Shown piece after piece: positions 5,946 through 34,536 of a DNA stretch of 64,000 nucleotides. Below the pieces are notes generated by a model. It did not search any database. It was not told the DNA's origin and saw only the letters and a list, made by a program, of their open reading frames with translations. Numbering within the stretch: position 1 is the stretch's first letter; every line of letters starts with the position of its first letter. The stretch lies in the NCBI RefSeq assembly GCF_003790525.1, contig NZ_CP033635.1; one strand, given 5' to 3'. This DNA comes from Escherichia coli (GTDB lineage Bacteria > Pseudomonadota > Gammaproteobacteria > Enterobacterales > Enterobacteriaceae). A program made the translations under genes and the position numbers.

Positions 5946-6878
5946 GTGAAAACACTAATAAGAAAATTCTCCCGTACGGCCATCACGGTCGTATTAGTCA
6001 TTCTGGCCTTCATCGCAATTTTTAATGCCTGGGTCTATTACACCGAATCCCCGTGGACGCGTGACGCGCGCTTTAGCGCTGACGTCGTTGCGATCGCGCC
6101 GGACGTTTCTGGACTCATTACCCAGGTGAATGTTCATGATAACCAGCTGGTGAAAAAAGGACAGGTACTGTTCACCATCGACCAGCCGCGTTATCAAAAG
6201 GCGCTTGAGGAAGCGCAAGCCGATGTTGCTTATTATCAGGTACTGGCACAGGAGAAACGCCAGGAGGCCGGACGTCGTAACCGTCTCGGTGTGCAGGCGA
6301 TGTCTCGCGAAGAGATCGACCAGGCCAACAACGTACTACAAACAGTTCTGCATCAGTTAGCGAAAGCGCAGGCGACCCGCGATCTGGCAAAACTGGATCT
6401 TGAACGTACAGTCATCCGCGCGCCAGCAGATGGCTGGGTGACCAACCTCAACGTCTATACCGGTGAGTTTATTACCCGTGGATCAACGGCGGTTGCGCTG
6501 GTGAAACAGAACTCCTTCTATGTACTGGCCTATATGGAAGAAACTAAGCTGGAAGGGGTGCGCCCTGGGTATCGTGCGGAGATCACGCCGCTTGGCAGTA
6601 ACAAAGTGCTGAAAGGGACTGTTGATAGTGTTGCCGCTGGGGTCACCAACGCCAGCAGCACGCGTGACGACAAAGGGATGGCGACCATCGACTCTAACCT
6701 TGAATGGGTGCGTTTGGCGCAACGTGTTCCGGTTCGTATTCGTCTCGACAACCAGCAAGAGAACATCTGGCCTGCGGGCACCACTGCTACAGTGGTGGTC
6801 ACTGGCAAACAAGATCGCGACGAAAGCCAGGATTCGTTCTTCCGTAAAATGGCCCATCGCCTGCGTGAGTTTGGTTAA
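5946..6878 (+). CDS. aaeA: p-Hydroxybenzoic acid efflux pump membrane-fusion subunit AaeA (310 aa), GTG start
   Basis: Full ORF; N-terminal TM helix then HlyD-like sequence; recognised as AaeA. Confidence 0.93.
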
Positions 6879-6883
6879 TCACG

Positions 6884-8851
6884 ATGGGTATTTTCTCCAT
6901 TGCTAACCAACATATTCGCTTTGCGGTAAAACTGGCGACCGCCATTGTACTGGCGCTGTTTGTTGGCTTTCACTTCCAGCTGGAAACGCCACGCTGGGCG
7001 GTACTGACAGCGGCGATTGTTGCCGCCGGTCCGGCCTTTGCTGCGGGAGGTGAACCGTATTCTGGCGCTATTCGCTATCGTGGCTTTTTGCGCATCATCG
7101 GCACATTTATTGGCTGTATTGCCGGACTGGTAATCATCATTGCGATGATCCGCGCACCATTATTGATGATTCTGGTGTGCTGTATCTGGGCCGGTTTTTG
7201 TACCTGGATATCCTCGCTGGTACGAATAGAAAACTCGTATGCGTGGGGGCTGGCCGGTTATACCGCGCTGATCATTGTGATCACTATTCAGCCGGAACCA
7301 TTGCTTACGCCGCAGTTTGCCGTCGAACGTTGTAGCGAGATCGTTATCGGTATTGTGTGTGCAATTATGGCGGATTTGCTCTTTTCTCCGCGATCGATCA
7401 AACAAGAAGTGGATCGAGAGCTGGAAAGTTTGCTGGTCGCGCAATATCAATTAATGCAACTCTGTATCAAACATGGCGATGGTGAAGTTGTCGATAAAGC
7501 CTGGGGCGATCTGGTGCGACGTACTACGGCGTTACAAGGTATGCGCAGCAACCTGAATATGGAATCTTCCCGCTGGGCGCGGGCCAATCGACGTTTAAAA
7601 GCGATCAATACGCTATCGCTGACGCTGATTACACAATCCTGCGAAACTTATCTTATTCAGAATACGCGCCCGGAATTGATCACTGATACTTTCCGCGAAT
7701 TTTTTGACACGCCGGTAGAAACCGCGCAGGACGTCCACAAGCAGCTCAAACGCCTGCGGAGAGTGATCGCCTGGACCGGGGAACGGGAAACGCCTGTTAC
7801 CATTTATAGCTGGGTCGCGGCGGCAACGCGTTATCAGCTTCTCAAGCGCGGCGTTATCAGTAACACAAAAATCAACGCCACCGAAGAAGAGATCCTGCAA
7901 GGCGAACCGGAAGTCAAAGTAGAGTCAGCCGAACGTCATCATGCGATGGTTAACTTCTGGCGAACCACACTTTCCTGCATTCTGGGGACGCTTTTCTGGC
8001 TGTGGACGGGCTGGACTTCCGGCAGTGGTGCAATGGTGATGATTGCGGTAGTGACGTCACTGGCAATGCGTTTGCCAAATCCACGCATGGTGGCGATCGA
8101 CTTTATCTACGGGACGCTGGCCGCGCTGCCGTTAGGGCTGCTCTACTTTTTGGTGATTATCCCTAATACTCAACAGAGCATGTTGCTGCTGTGTATTAGC
8201 CTGGCAGTGCTGGGATTTTTCCTCGGTATAGAAGTACAGAAACGGCGACTGGGCTCGATGGGGGCGCTGGCCAGCACCATAAATATTATCGTGCTGGATA
8301 ACCCGATGACTTTCCATTTCAGTCAGTTTCTCGACAGCGCATTAGGGCAAATCGTCGGCTGTGTGCTCGCGTTCACCGTTATTTTGCTGGTGCGGGATAA
8401 ATCGCGCGACAGGACTGGACGTGTACTGCTTAATCAGTTTGTTTCTGCCGCTGTTTCCGCGATGACTACCAATGTGGCACGTCGTAAAGAGAATCACCTC
8501 CCGGCACTTTATCAGCAGCTGTTTTTGCTGATGAATAAGTTCCCAGGGGATTTGCCGAAATTTCGCCTGGCGCTGACGATGATTATCGCGCACCAGCGCC
8601 TGCGTGATGCGCCGATCCCGGTTAACGAGGATTTATCGGCGTTTCACCGACAAATGCGCCGCACAGCAGACCATGTGATATCTGCCCGTAGCGATGATAA
8701 ACGTCGTCGGTACTTTGGCCAGTTGCTGGAAGAACTTGAAATCTACCAGGAAAAGCTACGCATCTGGCAAGCGCCACCGCAGGTGACGGAACCAGTACAT
8801 CGGCTTACGGGTATGCTCCATAAGTATCAACATGCGTTGACCGATAGTTAA
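6884..8851 (+). CDS. aaeB: p-Hydroxybenzoic acid efflux pump subunit AaeB (655 aa)
   Basis: Full ORF, multi-TM, 5 bp downstream of aaeA; recognised as AaeB. Confidence 0.93.
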
Positions 8852-8942: not shown

Positions 8943-9215
8943 ATGAATATTTATACCTTTGATTTTGATGAGATTGAGAGTCAGGAGGATTTTTATCGCG
9001 ACTTCAGCCAAGCCTTTGGTCTGGCGAAAGATAAGGTACGCGATCTCGACTCACTATGGGATGTGTTAATGAACGATGTCCTGCCGCTACCACTTGAGAT
9101 TGAATTTGTTCATCTGGGAGAGAAAACGCGTCGCCGTTTTGGCGCGTTAATATTGCTGTTTGATGAGGCAGAGGAAGAGCTGGAAGGGCATTTGCGTTTT
9201 AATGTTCGTCATTAG
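8943..9215 (+). CDS. yhcO: Barstar-like protein YhcO (90 aa)
   Basis: ORF translation [21 protein letters not shown]... recognised as YhcO. Confidence 0.88.
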
Positions 9216-9270
9216 CGCAAAAAAAAGCCCCCGAACCGGGGGCAATATCGTCGGACAAGACGATGAGGGT

Positions 9271-9534
9271 TTATTTGTACAGTTCAGCCGTAGCGTGCCA
9301 GGTGTCACCGCTACGAGCTTCCGTAATCTGGTAGGCCGTTGCGCCTTTCTCTTCTGCTTTTTTGTTCAGCATTTCACGCATATCCATTGGCGAAGACGCC
9401 ACACCACTTACGGATACGGTCCCGATTGCTTCACGATTTTGTGCTTGTGCAGCATCAATGGAGTCGGCAGCGAATGCACCGAAAGAGAGAACAGAAAGTA
9501 CGCTTAATGCAGCAACAGTGGTTTTGATTTTCAT
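9271..9534 (-). CDS. yhcN: Periplasmic stress-induced protein YhcN (87 aa, signal peptide; DUF1471 family)
   Basis: Internal ATG preceded by gaggtaaaaatc RBS; N-terminal signal peptide MKIKTTVAALSVLSVLSFGAFA. Confidence 0.88.
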   Translation of the reverse strand: MKIKTTVAALSVLSVLSFGAFAADSIDAAQAQNREAIGTVSVSGVASSPMDMREMLNKKAEEKGATAYQITEARSGDTWHATAELYK

Positions 9535-9898
9535 GATTTTTACCTCGACATAATCTTTTAGCTGGGCCTTTGTTTCGTGACCCATATCACAAAATCAAGT
9601 ATACACTAATTATTGAACTAATTAATACCACGCTAACTGTTTCAGTTGATACTAAGTGTTAAAAATGTGAATTTTAATAACAAAAAAGTATTAAAAACAC
9701 GGTTATTTATTATAAATACCATATTTTTCAATTAGATAATGGATTTTGCATAATGTGCTTTTTTTACCGTATGTATTCATTGTGTGAATGATATGTCGCA
9801 GTAAAACGCACTATTCGTTAAATTAATCGCAGGGGAAAGCAGGGGGTTGAGAGGGATAAGCAACATTTTCCCCGCCGCCAGAAGCGACGGGGCAGAGA

Positions 9899-10372
<474 letters not shown>

Positions 10373-18835: not shown

Positions 18836-20203
18836 TTAATAAAATAGCGTGATAGTGGCAATCATATTCACCACGAAACCGACTGCCATGGGGATCGCTG
18901 TCCGCTTCACTACCGCAAAAGGCGAAACGCCTGCAATTCCTGACGTAACGACCACCACCGCAGTAATCGGCGAAACAGCGCGCGCTAGCGTCGTGGCAAA
19001 ATGCATTGGCATAATCATTACAACCGCTGGTACATGTAGTCCGGCTGCGATATTCGGAATAAGACTGGCAAATGACATAAACGGCGCATTGCCTGAGCCC
19101 ATCACAATGGCACAAATGGCAATGACCAGCGCCATAATAATCATCACGCCAATACCGCCCAGACCAGAATGCTCCGCCCCCCTGATAACCGCATCGACAG
19201 TGCCAATCGTCGTTAAGCCTTTCGCAAATATTTCACCCGCGACCACCAGCGTTACCACGTTGGCAAACTGCGTACCCATGCCGTCAAAAAACGCCTGCAC
19301 ATCGTCCATTGTTTCGCGCAAGTTATGCTTGCGGAAGAACTCAACAAACATCGTCACCGTCAAACTCAGTAACATCACCACCACCAGATGCAGTTCTGAC
19401 TGCATCAGCCCGACGTGGGCAAGGAACAGCGAGCCGAGCATCAGGATTAACGGCATCACCGGTAAAATGGCGTAATAGAGCGGCGGGACATTATCGAGAG
19501 CTTTTTGCTCTGCCTGTTCGTGATTGATATGTTTATCTTTTTTGTCGAAAGCGCGTTGCACGAAAAAGTGGGAGATCGCCACCGAGATAATGACGCAAGA
19601 GGCGACCGGAAGCTGGTAGTGGAAGAAGTAAGTGGCAATTTTCATTCCTGCGACCTGGGCAGCAAAAATGGAGTTCGTTTCCAGAATCCCCCACTCAATG
19701 GACATGGTGGTTGCGATAACCGCCACCGCAGAGAGACGACTTACTCCCAGACTCACCAGCGTCGGAAATAAGGTGACCATCAGCAACATACCCAGACCGG
19801 AGGCGCTGGTAATAAACTGCGCCATGATTTGGCCGATGACGTAAGTTGCCGACAGAATAATATACGGCGAGCGAATGAGTTTTAACGGGCGGCTTAACAA
19901 GCTCACCATCGCGCGACTTGCCCCTATGCGCTCCATATAGCGGGCATAACCGCCCACTGCCATAATCGACAGCCCCAATCCGGCAATGCGGTTGGACAGC
20001 ATGCGCAGGATTTCATTATAAATATCGACGATCAAGTAGCCGCTGCTTTTGGCGGGATCGAGCACACCACCGAACCCTAACCAGACACCGCACATCATCA
20101 GGAAGATACCTGCGGCAGCCAGCACCACCTGAGGTTTGTAGTTTTTCAGGATCAAATAGCCCATCGTAATTAATACGATGACAGATATAATTATGCCGAA
20201 CAT
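18836..20203 (-). CDS. dcuD: Putative C4-dicarboxylate transporter DcuD (455 aa, DcuC family)
   Basis: Polytopic membrane protein; ATG at 20203 ([11 protein letters not shown]...) fits the recalled DcuD N-terminus; the track ORF extends 6 codons further upstream. Confidence 0.88.
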
Positions 20204-20582
20204 TGTTGAACTCCGTGTCAAAAGAAAACGGTCAATCCCATAAACGGCAGATTGAAAACAATGATGTTATATTTTTTGCAAGGCTATTTATGGTGCGGAT
20301 GTCGTGTTTTTAATTGTAGATGAGGTGATTTTTCATTAAAAAATATGCGCTTATGATTATTTTGTAAGAACACATTCATAATATTCATAATACTTGTTAA
20401 TAGTCTTATGAATAATTCAATCGGGATGTTTTTATCTGCGTTACATTAATTTTTCGCAATAGTTAATTATTCAGTTAATTATAGTAATGATGAGGCACAA
20501 AGAGAAAACCCCGCCATTTCCCCCTACTTTCAATCCTGTGATAGGATGTCACTGATGATGTTAATCACACTGACCTTACAGA

Positions 20583-21374
20583 ATGGGCCTTATGAACGCA
20601 TTTGATTCGCAAACCGAAGATTCTTCACCTGTAATTGGCCGCAACTTACGCAGCCGCCCGCTGGCGCGTAAAAAACTCTCCGAAATGGTGGAAGAAGAGC
20701 TGGAACAGATGATCCGCCGTCGTGAATTTGGCGAAGGTGAACAATTACCGTCTGAACGCGAACTGATGGCGTTCTTTAACGTCGGGCGTCCTTCGGTGCG
20801 TGAAGCGCTGGCAGCGTTAAAACGCAAAGGTCTGGTGCAGATAAACAACGGCGAACGCGCTCGCGTCTCACGTCCTTCTGCGGACACCATCATCGGCGAG
20901 CTTTCCGGCATGGCGAAAGATTTCCTTTCTCATCCTGGCGGGATTGCCCATTTCGAACAATTACGTCTGTTCTTTGAATCCAGCCTGGTGCGCTATGCGG
21001 CTGAACACGCTACCGATGAGCAAATCGATTTGCTGGCAAAAGCACTGGAAATCAACAGTCAGTCGCTGGATAACAACGCGGCATTCATTCGTTCAGACGT
21101 TGATTTCCACCGCGTGCTGGCGGAGATCCCCGGTAACCCAATCTTCATGGCGATCCACGTTGCCCTGCTCGACTGGCTGATCGCCGCACGTCCAACCGTG
21201 GCTGATCAGGCTCTGCACGAGCATAACAACGTTAGCTATCAACAGCATATTGCGATCGTTGACGCGATCCGCCGCCACGATCCCGATGAAGCCGATCGCG
21301 CGTTGCAATCGCATCTCAACAGCGTCTCTGCTACCTGGCACGCCTTCGGTCAGACCACCAACAAAAAGAAATAA
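20583..21374 (+). CDS. nanR: GntR/FadR-family sialic acid regulon repressor NanR (263 aa)
   Basis: Full ORF; recognised as NanR; directly upstream of nanATEK. Confidence 0.95.
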
Positions 21375-24725: not shown

Positions 24726-26058
<1,333 letters not shown>

Positions 26059-26204
26059 ACGTATTCGCTCAGGCAGGGGGCGCTGGTTGGGAACTCAACG
26101 TTGGCATGGTTTCGCTGCTCTTGTGTAGATGTGTTGCAGTTATTTGCGACATTCCGCCGGAGTAGCGGAACTATGGAAAACGGCAATTGGCGCTCTTATC
26201 CCTT

Positions 26205-26236
26205 AGCTTTGTAAGGCTTAATTTTGGTAGAATGGG
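26205..26236 (+). promoter_or_regulatory. Candidate sigma70 promoter with extended -10 (TGgTAGAAT) for the AT-rich two-gene module
   Basis: TGGTAGAAT at 26225-26233 seen directly; the -35 is weak (TTGTAA or TTAGCT with non-ideal spacing). Confidence 0.35.
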
Positions 26237-26264
26237 GAATCGTTTAACGGAAAAAAACAATCAG

Positions 26265-26759
26265 ATGATTTCTTTTCTATCCGATGAATTTGAGGAATTT
26301 CCGCAGGGAGATTTTTTAAATCATCTCTATAGGTTTTCGGTAGACCATCATCATTTTATCGTGATATTTAGCCCTATTGATATTAGCGATGCGGAGTACC
26401 ATCAATACCGTAGCGAGGAAGTTGGATTTGAAATCCCAACTAATTGTTTTGATGTGAAATTTGATAGGCAAGAAAACTTTGATAGTGGTAACTTTTACAT
26501 GCCCCCCGCCGCAACTGAATGCTCGAGGCGCAGACGCTTTACTGATGAACTCGCAGAGGCGCTAGCAACGATTATTGAAAAGCATTACATCATTTATCAT
26601 GCCAGGGCTTATCTTGCCATCGCAGAGAATGACAAGTTGAAACGTTACTATGACCGGATTTTACACAATGCCCCGGCTAATGTAGCATATAGAGTAATCA
26701 AAGATGTTGGAGAGGAGGAACGAGGTTATGCCATACAAACCGAATGTTTCCGAACTTAA
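26265..26759 (+). CDS. Hypothetical acidic protein (~164 aa from ATG 26265; alternative starts 26232 or 26187), no recognised domain
   Basis: Single long ORF in an AT-rich (~40% GC by eye) segment; MISFLSDEFEEFPQGDFLNHLYRF...; no motif I recognise; start ambiguous, weak RBS. Confidence 0.6.
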   Translation: MISFLSDEFEEFPQGDFLNHLYRFSVDHHHFIVIFSPIDISDAEYHQYRSEEVGFEIPTNCFDVKFDRQENFDSGNFYMPPAATECSRRRRFTDELAEALATIIEKHYIIYHARAYLAIAENDKLKRYYDRILHNAPANVAYRVIKDVGEEERGYAIQTECFRT

Positions 26760-26874
26760 GAAAATGACTGTTGCAGAGCGCAAGAAAGAAGCCATGCGCC
26801 AGCTTAAAGCATCCTTTGAGCGCGCCAGCATTGAAGGGACTTTGCATAAACGCTCTGCAAAGTCTGTTGCGTAA
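26728..26874 (+). CDS. Hypothetical small basic protein (48 aa), overlaps the 3' end of the preceding ORF by 32 nt in another frame
   Basis: Strong RBS GAGGAGG 7-13 nt upstream of ATG 26728; MPYKPNVSELKKMTVAERKKEAMRQLKASFERASIEGTLHKRSAKSVA; below the ORF-track length cutoff, found by reading. Confidence 0.5.
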   Translation: MPYKPNVSELKKMTVAERKKEAMRQLKASFERASIEGTLHKRSAKSVA

Positions 26875-26888
26875 TGAAAGATTTCAAT

Positions 26889-26914
26889 AACCCGCTGCGG
26901 CGGGCCTTTTTTTG
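26889..26914. terminator. Rho-independent terminator 15 nt after the small ORF (possibly bidirectional, facing the convergent VWA gene)
   Basis: cccgctgcggcgggcctttttttg: GC stem plus T7 run. Confidence 0.75.
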
Positions 26915-27095
26915 CCCTCAGAAAATCCCCTCTGACCTGCCTCAGGGATTATATACAACCTTCAGTTAATTAGCTGCGCACCATACGCGGCCCGAGCCTT
27001 ATCGCCTTGTTCAAATTCGACAATTCGTCGGCCAATTTCCCCGAACGTCGCGGTGCTAAGTACCGTATCCGTCCGGGCGTATCCGGCCAGAATTT

Positions 27096-28265
27096 TCAGG
27101 CGGTTTCTCTTGCTGTCACTACGCCATTTTGCGCAGCCCACAGATTCACATCTTCCTTACGAATGGCGGCGGCCATCATGCCGGGGAATAAATCTGGGGT
27201 ACAGGCAAAGGAGGGAATACCCATGGCGGCGAGTTTTCCTGCCAGTGACCGGTCGTAAAACGGCGCACCTTCATCGCTTAAGGCCAGCAGGGTAACCACC
27301 TGTACGCCGGACTGAATCAACTCACTGGCGCGTTGCAACAGATTGCGTTCCACCCCGCCTTCGTAGAGGTCGGAAATCAGCACCAGAATGGTATTGCGCG
27401 GATCGCGAATCAAAGACTGGCAGTAGCCCACCGCGCGGTTGATGTCGGTGCCGCCACCCAGCTGTACGCCAAACAGCAGCTCTACCGGATCGTCGAGCTT
27501 CTCTGTCATATCAACGACTGCGGTGTCGAAAACCACCAGATGCGTTTTTACCGCCGGGAGCGATGCCATTACTGCGCCAAAAATACTGGAATAGACCACC
27601 GAGGAGGCCATCGACCCACTCTGGTCGATACATAAAATGATCTCCTTTTGCGTGCGTTGAGACTTGCGCCCGTAGCCGATCAGCGTTTCAGGAACAATAC
27701 TTTTATACTCTTCCTGCCAGTGGCGCAGGTTGGCGCGAATGGTGCGCTGCCAGTCAATTTCCGCGTGGCGCGGGCGACGATTACGTACCGCACGATTAAG
27801 AGCGCCGCTTACCGCGCTACGCATTGGCTCTTCAAGCTGTTTCATCAATTGCTCGACAACTTTACGCACCACAAGCCTGGCGGTTTCTTTGGTTTTGGCC
27901 GGAATTACGCCATTCAGCGACATCAGCGTGGAGACCAGATGAACATCAGGCTGGACGTTTGCCAGCATCTCCGGCTCCAGCAACATACTGTGCAAATTAA
28001 GACGTTCAAAGGCGTCTTTTTGCATCACCTGAACCACAGAAGAAGGGAAATACTGGCGAATATCACCCAGCCAGCGAGCGACTTTGGGTGACGATCCACC
28101 CGTGCCGCCGCGTAATCCATGTTTACCCTCTGGCTGATACAGCGCCGCCAGCGCGGCATCAATCGCGGACTCTCTGGCATCCAGCGCCACGTTACAGGCA
28201 TTGTCGGCATCTTCTCCAAGGATCAGACGCCAGCGGCGCAGCCGTTCCATTTCGTTACTCGACAT
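27096..28265 (-). CDS. von Willebrand factor A (VWA) domain protein with complete MIDAS motif (389 aa); fifth gene of novel operon
   Basis: DQSGSM (DxSxS), GGGTD and LISDLYEGG motifs seen in the translation; start overlaps the upstream gene's stop by 11 nt. Confidence 0.85.
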   Translation of the reverse strand: MSSNEMERLRRWRLILGEDADNACNVALDARESAIDAALAALYQPEGKHGLRGGTGGSSPKVARWLGDIRQYFPSSVVQVMQKDAFERLNLHSMLLEPEMLANVQPDVHLVSTLMSLNGVIPAKTKETARLVVRKVVEQLMKQLEEPMRSAVSGALNRAVRNRRPRHAEIDWQRTIRANLRHWQEEYKSIVPETLIGYGRKSQRTQKEIILCIDQSGSMASSVVYSSIFGAVMASLPAVKTHLVVFDTAVVDMTEKLDDPVELLFGVQLGGGTDINRAVGYCQSLIRDPRNTILVLISDLYEGGVERNLLQRASELIQSGVQVVTLLALSDEGAPFYDRSLAGKLAAMGIPSFACTPDLFPGMMAAAIRKEDVNLWAAQNGVVTARETA

Positions 28266-30504
28266 GATTTTCCCTTTCGTGTGGTGGCAAAGCCAGAATG
28301 CGGCGCAGTAGCGGCAGCATTAACGCGGCACGCTGTTCATCCCATATACCGCTGGTCTCTTCTTGCTGCGCGACACGCTCGCCCTGCGCGGCGCGTTCGC
28401 CTAACTGGCGGCGTTCCGGGCTGGAAAAACGGCCGAATGTCCGCCGCAGCATCGGCAGGATCCGGGTGAAGTGATTGTCGTTCAGGCCGCTTAGCCAGGC
28501 ATCGATCAACTGCCATAATTCGCTATTGTGCAGTAGCACCATCGCGCTGTCGTTGAGGAAACCTTCCGCCCATGCGGCACTTTCCGCCGGGGGATTGGCT
28601 GGCGATAGCGCCAGGTTCATCAGCGTGCTGATCCGTTCTGTCGTTAACGTTTGCAGATCAAACAACAGGCGCGTCGCCGTTCCGCGAAGCAGCGCGTGTG
28701 CGGTACTGCCCTCTGCCAGCACCATCAACGCCTGCAACCAGCCCGCCAATAGATCTTCGTTATCCAGCAACCGCAGCGCGGCGTGGGCGTCGATAACTTT
28801 TTCTCTCATACTGGCGGCGCTGTCGTCGTTGAGCGCCGAACAGGCTCCGGGTAGGGCGATGGCGGCGCGCGGGGCGAGGCTCATCAGTACCTGCATTACC
28901 ATACCAGAGTCGGTCTGGCGCACGTTGCCGTAGCGGACAATCGCCACCAGTGGTGCCAGGGCTTCCAGCAACTGTTCGATATTGCCCTGAGTGGCAGCCA
29001 GTGATTCCAGTGTATTGGCGATGGGGGCAATCGCGGTCTGTAAATCGGCCAGTAGCACCTGTTGGATAAGCTTTGCCAGTTCCGGCAGCGTGCTGGCGTA
29101 TTGCGCCCTCACAATGGCATAGCGGGAGCTGGCCTGCTCAATGCTGTTACCCCAACGGCTGGCGGTAATGATGTTGATTGCCAGTGCCGGTTCCCAGCGC
29201 AGCGACCAGACTTCGTGGAACGTCCCTTTGCTGTTATTTCCTTGTCCAGCCAGACGGCCCCAGGAAATGTCGAGTAAGGTCAGGCGATGCAGTAAATGGC
29301 TACGCGCCAGATCGCCGGGTTTGCGCAGATCAAGATCCAGCACTTTTTCGCTGGCTTCTGCCTTCAGGCGCAGCGTTTTTTGCTGTTGCGTAATGTCGCG
29401 TTGGAGCGGCACGACGGGCGTATCATCCGGTACGCTTCCCAGCGCGTCGCCGACAATTAACTTCTGGCGAATCATCTGCATTGGCGCGCTTTCGCCCATA
29501 CACACTACGGTTTGCAGCGCTTCGCAAAGTTCGTCAAGCCCCGGCTGCGGGTGATGGCGCATAATCGCCAGCGTCTGCGCCAGCCGCGCCGCTTCGATAA
29601 TGTGGGCGCTGGAACAGTCGAGATCGGCTTCGCGAAACAGCCTTGCCGCGCGTGACAGCCAGCCGATATCGCGGTGAGAAGCGCCCTGATAACGCCACAG
29701 ATGATCGTACCATTCCGGTGACACCACCCCTGCGCCATAACCGCTGGCGCGGCTTAACGCCTCGTAGCTCCAGGGCGTCCAGGCTGCCGCGACCTTGCAC
29801 TTCGGCAAATTTTTCAGCAGTTCGTTATCATTCTTTGCGGGCGGCAGGTTTTCCAGCGCCGGAACGTGCCACGCACCGCAGACTACCGCGATGCGCGAGA
29901 AGCCCTCTTTTTTCGCCTGACGTAGCGTCTTGCGCATATACGCTTCACGCAGTTGATCTCTGGCTGAGTTTCGGGCTTCGGGAGTTGCCTGGCGTAGGGC
30001 AATCATCGCCTCGCGAATCGCCTCGAACAGAGACAAATCATCTTCGCGTTCCTCTACTCTGTGGCTCCACCAGCTTTCCCCATCGGTGTAACCGGCGGCG
30101 CGGCCCAGCCAGTCCAGCGGATCGCCGTCGGGACTGGCTTCAACGGCATCATCGTCATCGCTCTCTTTTTCGTCATCAAGCGCGAACTGATGACTGATGG
30201 GCAAGTCCATAAAGCGCACGGCGATATTTTGCTCAAAACCATAGCGCAGCGCCTGCCATTCCGGGGAGAACGCCGCAAAGGGGTAAAACGCGGCGTGATG
30301 TGAGTCGTCCGGGGCATAAATCAGTAGCGCGACCGGCGGTTGCATCTGTTCATGCTGCATAAAAGGCAGGATGGATTCGCCGTCGGGCGGCCCTTCCACC
30401 AGCAGGCAGTCGGGCTGTAGCGTCTCCAGCGCCTTTCGCAGGCTGCGCGCGCAGCCAGGGCCATGGTGACGGATGCCAAACAAATGAACGGTTTGTTCAG
30501 TCAT
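28255..30504 (-). CDS. Large hypothetical protein (749 aa), no motif recognised; fourth gene of novel operon
   Basis: Uninterrupted 2.25-kb ORF; AAGG RBS in the 17-nt gap after the AAA+ gene; acidic stretch DDEKESDDDDAVEASPDGD; helical Leu/Ala-rich C-terminal half. Confidence 0.8.
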   Translation of the reverse strand: MTEQTVHLFGIRHHGPGCARSLRKALETLQPDCLLVEGPPDGESILPFMQHEQMQPPVALLIYAPDDSHHAAFYPFAAFSPEWQALRYGFEQNIAVRFMDLPISHQFALDDEKESDDDDAVEASPDGDPLDWLGRAAGYTDGESWWSHRVEEREDDLSLFEAIREAMIALRQATPEARNSARDQLREAYMRKTLRQAKKEGFSRIAVVCGAWHVPALENLPPAKNDNELLKNLPKCKVAAAWTPWSYEALSRASGYGAGVVSPEWYDHLWRYQGASHRDIGWLSRAARLFREADLDCSSAHIIEAARLAQTLAIMRHHPQPGLDELCEALQTVVCMGESAPMQMIRQKLIVGDALGSVPDDTPVVPLQRDITQQQKTLRLKAEASEKVLDLDLRKPGDLARSHLLHRLTLLDISWGRLAGQGNNSKGTFHEVWSLRWEPALAINIITASRWGNSIEQASSRYAIVRAQYASTLPELAKLIQQVLLADLQTAIAPIANTLESLAATQGNIEQLLEALAPLVAIVRYGNVRQTDSGMVMQVLMSLAPRAAIALPGACSALNDDSAASMREKVIDAHAALRLLDNEDLLAGWLQALMVLAEGSTAHALLRGTATRLLFDLQTLTTERISTLMNLALSPANPPAESAAWAEGFLNDSAMVLLHNSELWQLIDAWLSGLNDNHFTRILPMLRRTFGRFSSPERRQLGERAAQGERVAQQEETSGIWDEQRAALMLPLLRRILALPPHERENHVE

Positions 30505-30521
30505 AGTGGTTGCCTTGCTGA

Positions 30522-31616
30522 TTACACAATTTCGCGGCAGGCGCGATAGAGATCGTTCCAGTCGCTGCGCTCTTTGACTATAGTTTCCAGATATTCACGC
30601 CATACCACGTCGTCCTGCACGGGATCTTTTACCACCGCGCCGATAAGGCTTGCGGCGATATCCCGCGGATGTAGCACGCCGTCGCCAAAATGGCCCGCCA
30701 GCGCCATACCGTTGTTGATAACGGAGATCGCCTCCGCGGTGCTGAGAGTACTGGTTGGCGACTTAATTTTCGTTTTGCCGTCAACCGTCAGGCCGTTTCG
30801 CAGTTCGCGGAAGATTTGCACGACTCGCTGGATCTCTTTAAGCGCTGGCGGTTCGGCAGGAAGTGCCAGCGCCTGACCCAGTTCGGCGACGCGGCGAGTG
30901 ACAATGTTAATCTCTTCTTCTTCGCTGGCGGGTACGGGCAAAATGACCGTGTTGAAACGACGTTTAAGTGCGGAAGAAAGCTCGTTAACGCCTTTATCCC
31001 GGTTGTTGGCGGTGGCGATAACGTTAAAGCCGCGCGTCGCCTGGACCTCTTCATTCAGTTCGGGGATAGGCAGCGTTTTTTCCGACAGGATCGTGATCAG
31101 CGTGTCCTGAACATCGGCAGGAATACGCGTCAGCTCTTCTACGCGGGCAATCTGCCCGCGTGCCATCGCCCGCATCAATGGGCTTTCTACCAGCGCCGAA
31201 CGTGACGGACCTTTAGAGAGCAACTCCGCGTAGTTCCAGCCATAACGCATTTGTTCTTCACCGGTGCCTGCGGTGCCCTGAATAATTAACGTTGAGTCGC
31301 CGCTGATGGCAGCCGCCAGATGTTCAGAGACCCAGGATTTCGCAGTGCCGGGTACGCCATACAACAGCAGTGCGCGATCGGTTGCCAGCGTGGCAACGGC
31401 GGTTTCGATAATCCGCCTGTTGCCGATATATTTCGGCGTGACCTCAAAACCATTTTCCAGTTGCCCGCCTAACAGATAAGTAGCAACGGACCACGGAGAA
31501 ATAGCCCAGTTTTCCGGGCGCGGATGAGTATCGTTTTTTTGCAGCTCATCCAGTTCTTCTGCAAATTGTTGTTCGGCATGTCGGCGTAAAACGGCGGCAG
31601 TAGCGGTGGAAGTCAT
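30522..31616 (-). CDS. MoxR-like AAA+ ATPase (364 aa from ATG 31616); third gene of novel operon
   Basis: Walker A LLLYGVPGTAKS (GxPGxAKS, MoxR-type), Walker B-like IARVEELTRIPADVQ, sensor-1 NVIATANN, Arg finger LKRRF; ATG overlaps the upstream stop as ATGA. Confidence 0.85.
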   Translation of the reverse strand: MTSTATAAVLRRHAEQQFAEELDELQKNDTHPRPENWAISPWSVATYLLGGQLENGFEVTPKYIGNRRIIETAVATLATDRALLLYGVPGTAKSWVSEHLAAAISGDSTLIIQGTAGTGEEQMRYGWNYAELLSKGPSRSALVESPLMRAMARGQIARVEELTRIPADVQDTLITILSEKTLPIPELNEEVQATRGFNVIATANNRDKGVNELSSALKRRFNTVILPVPASEEEEINIVTRRVAELGQALALPAEPPALKEIQRVVQIFRELRNGLTVDGKTKIKSPTSTLSTAEAISVINNGMALAGHFGDGVLHPRDIAASLIGAVVKDPVQDDVVWREYLETIVKERSDWNDLYRACREIV

Positions 31617-33217
31617 AAAGTAGTTTCTCCGACAAAAAACGAATGAAGTTGAATTCGGTGCGCCAGCGTGGCGCTCAGGGCAGTAAAGGCTGCCTCGCAA
31701 TAAGGCGTTTGTTGTGCGTCATGCGGCCACTTGTCAATGACATCATTGAGGACTTCGGGGGCCAGCAGGCAGGCGAAATCACTCATCACATGGCGCAGGG
31801 CGTAGTCAAAGCGCGCGGAATCATGTTTCACCCAACGGTGCAGCTCCGTGACCATTTGCTGGCTCAGGCGCAGGCTAAAGAGCGACGCATCCAGCGGTAA
31901 CAGGGCGATGTAGCGTTGTAAATGTTCGCCGCCCATTACCGAGAACAGTAACGTCAACACTGGCTCGTGTTCTTCTACGGGCAGGCATTGCAGAAGCTCA
32001 AAGGCGTTAATCTTCACGCCAGCAGGGGAATGAATGCTTATTCCGACGGGGAGTAGGGCGAGGAATGCCTGCGCCCACTGTGGATTTTTTTCGCGCAGGA
32101 CGGCGTGATACCAGGCGCGCAGTAGCGCCTCCTGCCAGTCGGTTTTCCCGGCCCAGCGCAGCAGTTCAACGGGGGTAGCCTGCAGTTGCGTTTGCCACCA
32201 GTCGAGCGGAACCGCTGCAACTATCTGATACAGCCACCATGCGCGCTGGCCCAACTTTTCGCCTTTGGGCTTAGTTTCTTCCAGCGCATCGGCCTTCCAC
32301 TCTGGTAAGAACGCCTCCGGGGCATCAAGGGCGACGCGCAGCATTTTTTCTTTGCCGGATAAGCCTTTTAGCCTTTCAAGTAAGGTCTCAGGAGCGGGGG
32401 ATGAACTGAGCAACGGCGCTAACCGAGACTTCATGCGCGAGATCCAGGCGCTTTCCGGCAGACAACACAGTAACCGTGCCGCAGTTTGCCGCACCTCTTT
32501 GCTGCGATCGGATAATGTCTGTTCCAGAAAGGCTTCGTCGTGTTGGGAGATCCCCACTTCCAGCACAGCCAGCAGCTGTGCGCGTTCGCGGGCATCCAGC
32601 GAACTCATCTCCTGCGCCAGCCGATCGCGACCCTGTTCCGGGGCGCGAATGCGCATTTGCGTCAGATATTGCAGACGCTGTTCGGACGTGCCGTGCAGCC
32701 ACATTTCTTCATCCAGCGGAGCGTCAGTGGAGGCGAGAACATAGCCCCAATCGGCGTTGATTTGCGCCAGCCAGCACCCGCGAGCGCCCAGAACATTGGA
32801 CAGGATGCCGCGTAGAGATGGCTTTTGCGCTCCATAATTCAGCAATGCTGGTAACAGCAGGGGCGGAGGAAGAAGTTGACGACGGACCAATAGATCAAGC
32901 GCCGACCACAGCAACCGCGGCGGTCCTTCTGACAGCAGCAGATGCAGCAGTCCCGCAAAAGCCGGGTTGTTTATTGGCTCGGCATTTTCTTTATCGATTT
33001 CCGGCAGCGGTGCGGGGTCAATCGCCTGCGGCACCCAGCCAGCCAGATGGCAGAGCGCCAGAACGCCCGCCGAGCGCAGTAGCTGTTGCTCTGCGGATGT
33101 GTTATTCGCCAGTTCAGACAGTAACAGCCCAATCTCACTTTGCGACGCCGACGGTGTAAACGCTTTTTTGTCTGTGCCGAGTAGCGCTGTGCGGGTTAAA
33201 TTTTGCCATTCGTTCAT
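31613..33217 (-). CDS. Hypothetical alpha-helical Leu-rich protein (534 aa from ATG 33217; 541 aa if 33238); second gene of novel operon
   Basis: Long ORF; ATG at 33217 forms an ATGA overlap with the SWIM gene stop; Leu/Ala/Trp-rich repeat-like sequence; no catalytic motif recognised. Confidence 0.8.
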   Translation of the reverse strand: MNEWQNLTRTALLGTDKKAFTPSASQSEIGLLLSELANNTSAEQQLLRSAGVLALCHLAGWVPQAIDPAPLPEIDKENAEPINNPAFAGLLHLLLSEGPPRLLWSALDLLVRRQLLPPPLLLPALLNYGAQKPSLRGILSNVLGARGCWLAQINADWGYVLASTDAPLDEEMWLHGTSEQRLQYLTQMRIRAPEQGRDRLAQEMSSLDARERAQLLAVLEVGISQHDEAFLEQTLSDRSKEVRQTAARLLCCLPESAWISRMKSRLAPLLSSSPAPETLLERLKGLSGKEKMLRVALDAPEAFLPEWKADALEETKPKGEKLGQRAWWLYQIVAAVPLDWWQTQLQATPVELLRWAGKTDWQEALLRAWYHAVLREKNPQWAQAFLALLPVGISIHSPAGVKINAFELLQCLPVEEHEPVLTLLFSVMGGEHLQRYIALLPLDASLFSLRLSQQMVTELHRWVKHDSARFDYALRHVMSDFACLLAPEVLNDVIDKWPHDAQQTPYCEAAFTALSATLAHRIQLHSFFVGETTL

Positions 33218-34536
33218 TGTGCGCCTCCGGTTGCCCAAATGACGCTACCGGCAAGCCAGGCGCTACAGGGCGTCAGCTGCTGACCATCCCATTCCCCCAT
33301 TAGCATAAACGGCGCGCCGCCGCTGGCCGCCAGTAACCGCCAACCCTCGTCCGACGACAGGTGCGTCGGTAAGTGCTGGCCCTGTGTCGAGACGAATCGC
33401 CAGCCGCTCTCGTGCGGGTAAATCAATATTTCGCTTACTCGCAGCGGCAGAGGCCATTGCCAGGGATTCGCGCTAAGCCGCTGCGCCATGTCATGCAGCG
33501 CGTCCGGGAGGGGTAATTCTGCAAGCGGGAATCTTTCACCGCGGGTAAACGGCTCCACAACCCGCGCCCGTAGCGGTGATGCGCCAGGGAAAAAGGCAAG
33601 CGCGCCCTGGCAGACTTGCCCGGTGATAAAGTGCTGGGGAAAGTTTTTACTACCGTGTGAATAGTCCAGCAGTAGCGCGGTGCGGTGGCTCTTTTCTCCG
33701 TACAGCCAGACCCGGCGTCGCCACAGATTATTCCCTTCTTGCGCGCTTTGACCTAAGACCTGCCAGTTATCGAGGCAGGTTAATCCGTCAGTGACGTCGT
33801 GTTTATCCGGGGGTATTCCCAATGCCGCATGGAGATCGCTAAGTTGTGCCGGGGATAACATTTGTTGCTGGCGCCAGGCGTCAATAATCAGCTGTAGCTG
33901 CCCCAGTTCTTTGCACAGGCTCGATGGCCATACCTCGGCGGTAGTAAAATGAGTGGTCAGATTGTTCAGGCGAGCGGCAATTCCCGGTAGTTGGGCGTCG
34001 ACCATGCGGGCGGCGATCCCGGCAAAAGGCAACTGTTGTGCAGAGATCTGCGCCAGACCGTGGCGGATCAGGTCGTGCATCCACTGTTCGAGGAAATCCA
34101 GCCCCGCCGTCATTTTTTGGTTGCGTGCCGCTTCCCGTTTGGCGGCAGCCTGCGGGTCGGCAGCTTTTGCCTCAGCCTGCTCTTTCTTCTCTTCTTTGCG
34201 AACCGCCCGCTGCTGGCGCGAGGTTAGCCACTCGCTTACCCATTCCGGCGGCTCGCCAGCGGTGAAACTTGCGGTGTGTTGCACCTGGAGAAAAAGCAAC
34301 GCAAGGCTATGTTTACAGGGGAATTTACGGCTGGGGCAGGAACATTTACAGGCCAGATCCTGTCTGTCGATTCGTACCTGATAAGGGCGGGAGCCGCTAC
34401 CTTTACACTCTCCCCAGAAGGCAGCCTCGCTATATCCGAGCGTCGGCCATTTTGCGGGAGCAACCAGGCCACGAGCCGCTTTAACCGAGGCGTCATCGGG
34501 CGCCAGGGCTTGCACTGATTCAACGGTCAGTTCCAT
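33214..34536 (-). CDS. SWIM zinc-finger domain protein (440 aa); first gene of novel operon
   Basis: CxCxnCxH signature at residues 63-76 (ACKCSCPSRKFPCKHSLALLF); first ORF downstream of gltD on the same strand. Confidence 0.85.
   Translation of the reverse strand: MELTVESVQALAPDDASVKAARGLVAPAKWPTLGYSEAAFWGECKGSGSRPYQVRIDRQDLACKCSCPSRKFPCKHSLALLFLQVQHTASFTAGEPPEWVSEWLTSRQQRAVRKEEKKEQAEAKAADPQAAAKREAARNQKMTAGLDFLEQWMHDLIRHGLAQISAQQLPFAGIAARMVDAQLPGIAARLNNLTTHFTTAEVWPSSLCKELGQLQLIIDAWRQQQMLSPAQLSDLHAALGIPPDKHDVTDGLTCLDNWQVLGQSAQEGNNLWRRRVWLYGEKSHRTALLLDYSHGSKNFPQHFITGQVCQGALAFFPGASPLRARVVEPFTRGERFPLAELPLPDALHDMAQRLSANPWQWPLPLRVSEILIYPHESGWRFVSTQGQHLPTHLSSDEGWRLLAASGGAPFMLMGEWDGQQLTPCSAWLAGSVIWATGGAQ

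Follow-up and report, generated by a model that had tools for sequence, protein, structure and literature searches.

An apparently mobile pair of overlapping genes in Escherichia coli encoding a predicted GNAT-like protein and a small basic partner

Among the described systems closest to the locus presented here are the GNAT/RHH type II toxin-antitoxin (TA) pairs TacAT, AtaRT, KacAT, ItaRT and GmvAT. In HigBA and MqsRA, the toxin gene comes first. In Sofic/AS1, a toxin that is an enzyme is followed by a short antitoxin encoded downstream, which provides a precedent (PMC12249575). We analyzed a window of 64,000 nucleotides (nt) of Escherichia coli (GCF_003790525.1, contig NZ_CP033635.1), a term used here for the whole stretch of DNA, which matches the chromosome of E. 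coli SMS-3-5 at 100% identity. Two overlapping open reading frames (ORFs) of this window, ORF1 and ORF2, form a small cassette located between nanQ and a remnant of yhcG (Table 1).

We tentatively suggest that the cassette is a selfish mobile TA-like module, serving addiction or defense, in which an effector with a GNAT fold would be combined with a small binding antidote. This reading is favored because of the anatomy of the cassette, the obligate pairing of its genes, the charge complementarity and predicted complex of their products, a scattered distribution linked to mobile genetic elements (MGEs), and a decay that affects ORF1 first.

Conservation and anatomy of the gene pair

An earlier reading of this stretch (the sequence-only reading) had proposed a search for homologs of both ORFs, and profile searches found them. 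The ORF1 family has 15 clusters in a word-seeded search and 66 representatives at 50% clustering in the full profile search, and the ORF2 family has 47 clusters. Pairwise ratios of non-synonymous to synonymous substitution rates (dN/dS) are 0.11-0.22 for ORF1 and 0.11-0.21 for ORF2, including its non-overlapping part, with dS from 0.12 to >1. ORF1 and ORF2 are both real and under purifying selection. The annotation of both genes as 'hypothetical protein' in RefSeq and the lack of Pfam and NCBIfam matches would suit chance ORFs, or a decaying remnant in AT-rich foreign DNA. Such a reading has a negligible probability and is already effectively refuted by dN/dS values of 0.1-0.2 at dS up to >1, by the number of ORF1 representatives and ORF2 clusters, by the confident fold predicted by AlphaFold2 (AF2), by the conserved expression signals, and by the 99.5-100% identity of the copies in 28 genomes.

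When all ORFs of the fetched loci were searched with hmmsearch, every intact ORF1-type gene proved to have an ORF2 homolog overlapping its 3' end (22 loci, plus a frameshifted one in Kluyvera), with ORF1 lacking ORF2 in 0 of the 22 loci. The pairs come from E. coli, Serratia, Kluyvera, Acerihabitans, Morganella, Proteus, Yersinia, Rahnella, Winslowiella, Pantoea and Klebsiella, and also include fusions to SIR2. The overlaps range from 17 to 41 nt across loci, reaching 86 nt in one case (L026), and the pairing holds down to about 35% identity. Of 46 ORF1 sequences, 43 have an isoelectric point (pI) below 7, and the pI of ORF2 varies from 9.9 to 11.4, the acid/base complementarity being conserved across the family.

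Two loci have unusual structures. In Kluyvera genomosp. 3 (L020, 6001-6612), a frameshift near codon 152 of ORF1 joins it to the ORF2 frame, generating an ORF of 203 amino acids (aa). The frameshift could stem from an error in sequencing; otherwise the ORF would be a pseudogene or a natural fusion. An IncFIB plasmid of K. pneumoniae (L040, 4716-5694) contains an ORF1 relative of 195 aa with 26% identity. The next gene overlaps it and encodes a partner of 139 aa, similar to ORF2 in its basic N-terminus and with an extra C-terminal part of about 95 aa that has no Pfam or PHROG match. This locus adjoins a site-specific integrase.

Regarding its composition, the segment 26205-26914 has a GC content of 41.8% vs 52.4% in the whole window and ranks in the lowest 1.7% of 710-bp windows, close to the 40% estimated by eye in the sequence-only reading. 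The overlapping acidic and lysine/arginine-rich ORFs described there, bounded by an extended -10 element and a strong intrinsic terminator, were all recovered, and both signals recur in related loci. ORF1 has a pI of 5.12 and a net charge of -10.8, and ORF2 has 12 lysines and arginines and a pI of 10.28. The reading frame of ORF2 is +1 relative to ORF1, and the two share 32 nt.

Table 1. Coordinates of the cassette and its features in the analyzed window
Feature	Coordinates	Strand	Basis and remarks
Segment found just in the 28 E. coli genomes with the cassette	26060..26965	.	megablast of 25700-27500 vs other E. coli; replaces 3' part of K-12-type yhcG
Transferred DNA unit	26088..26968	+	blastn vs Serratia oryzae locus L018
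Extended -10 TGgTAGAAT	26225..26233	+	read in sequence; same element in related loci
ORF1, 164 aa, acidic, proposed effector/toxin	26265..26759	+	
Promoter-like TTTACA-17-TAGCAT within ORF1	26660..26688	+	consensus scan, 9/12 matches
ORF2 Shine-Dalgarno GAGGAGGA	26712..26719	+	read in sequence; 8 nt 5' of ORF2 ATG
ORF2, 48 aa, basic, helical, +1 frame; proposed binding partner/antidote	26728..26874	+	
Intrinsic terminator CCCGC-TGCG-GCGGG then CC + T7	26891..26913	+	terminator scan

The start of ORF1 at 26265 is supported since its homologs have 162 to 165 aa with equivalent starts. Longer versions, one of 175 aa and the RefSeq model of 190 aa with a TTG start at 26187, were ruled out by these homolog lengths and by the position of the promoter. 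The in-frame ATG at 26232 sits inside the -10 element and is missing from the 92%-identical copy of Serratia oryzae.

The extended -10 was not flagged in a two-hexamer promoter scan because its -35 is poor; transcription would start near 26240. Of 18 related loci, 8 have a TGnTAnAAT or a -10 hexamer 35 to 40 nt before the ORF1 ATG, as an extended -10 at -38 to -40 in L018, L009, L005, L016 and L008, and as a bare hexamer in L002 and L015. The promoter region showed no conserved operator palindrome. The leader of ORF1 is A-rich with a weak Shine-Dalgarno sequence (SD), and the SD of ORF2, embedded in the ORF1 codons of a conserved G-E-E/G-G motif, is much stronger; an SD of the GAAGGAGGA type before ORF2 is kept in nearly all related loci. 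The terminator, 17 nt past the ORF2 stop, has a 5-bp stem made entirely of GC pairs (26891-26904) followed by T7, and a hairpin with a T-run is present 3' of ORF2 in about 15 of 18 related loci. Since promoter, SD and terminator are conserved across loci, the unit carries its own transcription and translation signals. One transcript, going from the extended -10 to the terminator, probably encodes both ORFs, and the start of ORF2 appears to be translationally coupled to the end of ORF1, a shared-transcript layout of a compact, foreign acidic/basic pair that agrees with the sequence-only reading.

The promoter-like site within ORF1 lies 40 nt upstream of the ORF2 start and is a possible internal promoter of this gene; internal promoters for the small gene are known in some toxin-first TA operons. 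Conservation gives it no support, and loci with an orphan ORF2 retain just 30 to 159 nt 5' of ORF2. A structured RNA element was also considered and rejected, the sole match in an Rfam scan of 25900-27150 being a sub-threshold anti-hemB over the terminator.

Predicted fold of ORF1, its partner and its SIR2-fused relatives

ORF1 and 46 family members have no Pfam match at E <= 10, and a search of PDB sequences with the family profile gave no match at the same threshold. ORF1 has no NCBIfam match and no similarity to the GNAT models of Pfam or NCBIfam. In PADLOC-DB v2 no match was found for ORF1 or ORF2 at E <= 1, and PHROGs gave no usable match for either. The AF2 model of ORF1 is confident, with a mixed alpha/beta architecture and structural matches that include SpeG and RimJ/L. 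The C-terminal two-thirds follow the order beta4-alpha3-beta5-alpha4-beta6-beta7, with an atypical N-terminal part and an insertion of 21 residues after beta4 that replaces the usual short beta4-alpha3 pyrophosphate loop (P-loop). In the loop of motif A (Q/R-x-x-G-x-G/A), ORF1 of E. coli reads RRRRFT and some homologs R-R-F/Y-G-F-A/V, just the final G/A/S (position 97) being common among 46 sequences. Given this fold order and the non-conserved coenzyme A (CoA) loop, we call ORF1 GNAT-like, with a predicted and very divergent fold, and consider its catalytic competence plausible. Neither protein had a recognizable motif in the sequence-only reading, to which the predicted structure adds a fold for ORF1.

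The invariant or nearly invariant residues of ORF1 are F24, F35, K65, F66, D67, N71, P81, L96, H107, Y116, A120, L125, Y129, R131, G149 and Y155. The polar ones (K65, D67, H107, Y116, Y129, R131 and Y155), placed on beta4, alpha3, beta5, alpha4 and beta7, would line the active cleft of a GNAT. In an hhalign comparison with RimI, non-significant at E 0.32, N122/Y129 are in register with N108/Y115 of RimI; the RimI sequence used was verified as that of E. coli. In this enzyme, Y115 acts as the general acid.

For ORF2, no convincing match was found in Pfam, NCBIfam, PHROGs or PADLOC. Two sub-threshold matches were treated as noise, one to DUF5486 (E 0.11) and the other to a PHROG 'head maturation protease' (E 0.003 over 26 residues). 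Neither profile searches nor the predicted structure revealed an HTH, RHH, AbrB or Phd-type domain. The predicted structure of the protein starts with a short helix, continues with a long amphipathic one covering residues 15-36, and ends in a short strand at the C-terminus. The invariant residues of ORF2 are R18, K19, M23 and A33. An AF2 run with ORF1 and ORF2 fused by a disordered linker of 30 residues, using 17 paired sequences, gave a predicted template modeling score (pTM) of 0.78, with a per-residue confidence (pLDDT) of 78-96 in the ORF2 part, where the C-terminal strand is also formed. Loop 81-100 of ORF1 is more confident in the fused model than in the model of ORF1 alone. These predictions suggest that the two proteins may form a direct complex.

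In Vibrionaceae, Marinomonas and related metagenomes, ORF1-like domains are fused to a SIR2-like domain (five representatives of 342-347 aa; loci L031-L034, e.g. L032 5776-6919). The N-terminal motifs GAGLSxxSGLPTY, TLNVDD and HxYG are visible in four of them (P0106, P0111, P0115 and P0122), with no zinc module, and the Pfam SIR2 match is weak (E 0.0022, residues 8-97). PADLOC matches are marginal, covering about 25 N-terminal residues at E ~0.002-0.006. The C-terminal ORF1-like domain retains the invariants of the family, and an overlapping ORF2 homolog of 42-43 aa follows the 3/3 fusions with loci fetched (P0106, P0111 and P0115). One of these loci sits between hsdRSM, a type I restriction-modification (R-M) system, and a tyrosine integrase. 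The cassette of E. coli itself has no SIR2 domain.

The structural data are also consistent with a non-toxic accessory enzyme whose small obligate partner would be a substrate, activator or subunit, acylated for example at K19, and which would bring a conditional benefit (resistance, regulation or metabolite modification) rather than addiction. The predicted GNAT-like fold with its invariant polar cleft residues and the invariant R18-K19 of ORF2 speak for it, as do the SIR2 fusions, since SIR2 is a family of lysine deacylases and suggests a writer/eraser logic. An acidic ORF1 would also suit the binding of a basic peptide or polyamine, with SpeG and RimJ/L among the structural matches. We regard this alternative as rather unlikely, because orphan ORF2 genes persist in four lineages, which one would hardly expect of a simple subunit or substrate, a patchy MGE-linked spread is typical of selfish modules and not of metabolic accessories, and no locus has neighboring pathway genes.

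A related and quite improbable possibility is a reversible acylation switch, in which ORF1 would acylate Lys19 of ORF2, or use ORF2 to present a target, and the fused SIR2 would erase the mark or burn NAD+, so that acylation of a mini-protein would gate toxicity or defense. If true, such a mechanism would differ from those of sequestration-type and known type VII TA systems.

Mobility, genomic contexts and decayed copies

A locus of Serratia oryzae (L018) has 92% identity over 882 nt by blastn, and this match defines a transferred unit of 0.88 kb. The Serratia copy adjoins an IS3 element and its flanks are otherwise unrelated. We consider the cassette to be foreign and horizontally acquired. 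No integrase or transposase could be attributed to the 0.88-kb unit. Terminal repeats and target duplications were not convincing either, the sole candidate being a 16-nt, 81%-complementary inverted pair at 26062/26936, whose left arm is missing from the Serratia copy.

The insertion sites are scattered. Chromosomal flanks are unrelated housekeeping genes, and the sites differ from genus to genus: cstA/entH in Kluyvera, IS200/parE in Acerihabitans, argD/crp in Morganella, kdsB in a Proteus-like contig, and an aminotransferase/adenosine-deaminase site in Yersinia. On plasmids, the pair occupies regions of maintenance or accessory genes, with rep/par among the neighbors: it is found near mazEF in a 153-kb plasmid of Y. 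pseudotuberculosis, adjoining IS3 and pifA/pifC in K. variicola, and near ParM/StbA and ParA in Pantoea ananatis. In an IncFII-type conjugative plasmid, which also carries a higBA-like pair, it lies between parA and ardC. On the plasmid-like contig of Pantoea ananatis (L039), a gene with a SIR2_2 domain (6410-7408, minus strand) and two other genes are located about 2 kb downstream on the opposite strand, a set that may be a separate defense system.

On the IncFII-type plasmid, ardC follows the pair directly, and ssb and a gene for a PLD nuclease are close by. This position, and an acidity that ORF1 shares with many DNA-mimic anti-restriction proteins, would fit a role in anti-defense or plasmid establishment, with ORF1 inhibiting or modifying a host defense, ORF2 as its cofactor, and the chromosomal copies as leftovers of plasmids or of integrative and conjugative elements. 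We consider this role very unlikely. Only 7-10 plasmid records contain the family, mostly typed as non-mobilizable, and most copies are chromosomal, between housekeeping genes and with their own promoter and terminator. The predicted fold of ORF1 is GNAT-like and not that of a DNA mimic, and SIR2 fusions lie beside an R-M system, as defense genes do. A tblastn search against 50,697 phage records gave no homolog, which also led us to reject a phage origin.

In E. coli, the cassette is present in 28 of 5426 complete genomes, all copies being in the same site and at least 99.5% identical. This site is between nanQ and the yhcG remnant, downstream of nanR-nanATEKQ. Using megablast with 25700-27500, other E. 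coli align up to the nanQ stop at 26058 and then only from 26966 to 27054, a yhcG fragment; what lies between these alignments is either a complete yhcG or a yhcG fragment together with a transposase gene. As the content of the nanQ-yhcG junction varies across E. coli, it is a site of repeated replacement. That the pair belongs to the nan operon was rejected, since the cassette is missing from other E. coli, is driven by a promoter of its own and has a foreign GC content.

The yhcG remnant (DUF1016/PDDEXK nuclease) occupies 26968-27090 on the minus strand, and some E. coli carry a longer fragment. Compared with strain 18KM2445, some 260 bp are missing from the window, seemingly through a deletion between short CGGGCG repeats. 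Between the remnant and gltD, in place of gltF-yhcADEF-yhcG of K-12, there is an island of five genes (27096-34536, minus strand) encoding VWA, DUF5682, AAA ATPase, DUF5691 and SWIM zinc finger proteins, which we take to resemble yehLMPQ-type MoxR/VWA clusters. No PADLOC model matches the island, which is carried by 33 of 5426 E. coli genomes. We rejected a functional tie between it and the cassette, given that strain 18KM2445 has the island but not the cassette (33 vs 28 genomes). The island is never found alongside the cassette loci outside E. coli. Two further patches of low GC (about 40-41%) are seen in the window, at ~9100-10300 and ~19800-20700, the latter being the 3' part of dcuC and the dcuC-nanR intergenic region.

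In four independent loci, ORF1 is cut to its last 20-35 codons or frameshifted, with ORF2, its SD and the terminator kept. In Klebsiella spallanzanii, an ORF1 remnant of about 30 codons precedes an ORF2 that is itself starting to decay (R18G, stop lost). A remnant of similar size (about 30 codons) is found in Citrobacter sedlakii, beside parDE, and Pantoea agglomerans has a truncated ORF1 with a frameshift. Enterobacter hormaechei and E. mori have a common megaplasmid locus with ORF2 only (17 contigs and 3 PLSDB records). The megaplasmids measure about 166-214 kb, and their orphan ORF2 of 49 aa (L036 6001-6150; L041-L043) invariably follows a gene of the heparinase II/III family and is 96.7-98.7% conserved vs 88-95% for the downstream non-coding DNA. 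The dN/dS between orphan ORF2 copies and their nearest intact relatives is 0.10-0.15, and 0.27 against a more distant one; the orphans are separated from each other by just 2-5 substitutions.

These decayed copies bear on the polarity of the system. An acidic-first, basic-second order is canonical for antitoxin and toxin, and a complex is predicted, so that ORF2 could instead be the toxin, a nucleic-acid or ribosome binder, and ORF1 an antitoxin acting by sequestration or by modification of K19. A first gene that encodes an enzyme fold is also reminiscent of type VII antitoxins. We see such a reversal as a poor candidate: ORF2, with its SD and terminator, outlives ORF1 at four independent loci, and a toxin should not outlast its antitoxin. 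Besides, the stronger SD would lead to an excess of ORF2, which is the pattern of an antitoxin, and to our knowledge there is no toxic precedent for a 48-aa hydrophilic helix of this kind.

Proposed mode of action and comparison with described systems

In the TA-like module that we favor, ORF1 would inhibit growth as an acyl-transfer enzyme, or at the least act as a harmful effector, and ORF2 would neutralize it by direct binding. The conserved hydrophobic face of ORF2 and its R18/K19 may dock on the acidic ORF1, with the C-terminal strand extending the sheet. ORF2 would be produced in excess over ORF1, and ORF1 would be set free if the cassette were lost or translation blocked. The role of such a module could be plasmid or island stabilization, an abortive-type defense, or both. 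In some relatives, the SIR2 domain, either NAD-consuming or a deacylase, may have been fused as a second or alternative effector.

Two small overlapping genes with their own promoter, mobile and patchy in distribution, correspond to the generic layout of type II TA systems, and the position of SIR2-fused relatives in what appears to be a defense island (integrase, hsdRSM) also favors this mode of action. Several observations weigh against it. ORF1 is strongly acidic, which would be unlike the tRNA-binding GNAT toxins, and its acetyl-CoA pyrophosphate loop is replaced by a sequence that is not conserved in the family, together with the long beta4-alpha3 insertion. ORF2 has no recognizable DNA-binding domain for autoregulation, and neither protein matches a TA or defense hidden Markov model. 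The survival of ORF2 only is based on four events and could reflect 5' deletions that merely silenced the operon, and the few substitutions among the orphans are too few to resolve selection on them. From the functions proposed in the sequence-only reading, we keep the TA-like one, in view of obligate pairs at more than 20 loci, scattered sites, decay to ORF2 only and SIR2 fusions; a small regulatory module found no support, and anti-defense has one weak hint (ardC) and no phage homologs.

The literature, searched for accessions as well as concepts, gave no account of the ORF1/ORF2 family, which is uncharacterized, being absent from Pfam, NCBIfam, PADLOC, PHROGs and the searched literature. 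If it is a TA or abortive-defense pair, it would be a new family with a GNAT-like effector invisible to profiles, an antidote of 48 residues and SIR2-fused relatives, enlarging the repertoire of conflict systems in Enterobacterales and Vibrionaceae. It would also imply that acetyltransferase-type toxins can be neutralized without a canonical RHH antitoxin, and the orphan ORF2 copies would be candidate anti-addiction genes. For an environmental multidrug-resistant E. coli lineage (SMS-3-5 type), two 'hypothetical proteins' gain a predicted fold, a family and a testable role, and the nanQ-yhcG junction is marked as a place where genes are repeatedly replaced.

Like the GNAT/RHH type II TA systems, the cassette has two coupled genes, is apparently mobile, and is found on plasmids and chromosomes, with a partner predicted to bind directly. 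Y129 of ORF1, on alpha4, is in register with the general-acid tyrosine of GNATs in the non-significant alignment with RimI. On the other hand, the gene order is reversed, with the GNAT-like gene first and the partner downstream. ORF2, with 48 aa, is basic, has no RHH or DUF1778 domain or similarity, and is predicted to be helix-helix-strand. ORF1 has no sequence homology with these toxins, the CoA P-loop is not conserved, and its acidity (pI 5.1) would argue against tRNA binding. On account of these differences in order, partner domain, homology, CoA loop and charge, we do not place the cassette in the TacAT/AtaRT family.

The succession of an effector gene and a small counteracting gene, in defense islands or MGEs, is shared with HigBA, MqsRA and Sofic/AS1 (for the latter, PMC12249575). 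In those systems, the effector is FIC or RelE-like instead of GNAT-like and there is no sequence relationship, the antidote role of ORF2 being putative. With the SIR2 defense effectors (Thoeris ThsA, DSR1/2, SIR2-HerA and SIR2-pAgo), relatives of ORF1 share a SIR2-like domain with GAGxS, TxN(V/I)D and H-x-G and no zinc module, as well as a position beside type I R-M and an integrase. However, the E. coli cassette has no SIR2, and the partner domain and mini-ORF occur in no described SIR2 system.

GNAT-like domains that are non-catalytic, such as the C-terminal domain of M. tuberculosis ICL2/Rv1916 and ornithine decarboxylase antizyme, are domains of metabolic enzymes or eukaryotic regulators and not mobile two-gene cassettes, and ORF1 differs from them in keeping invariant polar residues that suggest catalysis in the model. 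Type VII TA systems (HepT/MntA and TglT/TakA) are likewise compact two-gene units in which one partner is an enzyme that could modify the other. There, the enzyme is the antitoxin, whereas the decay pattern described here indicates that ORF2, and not the enzyme-like ORF1, is the safe partner.

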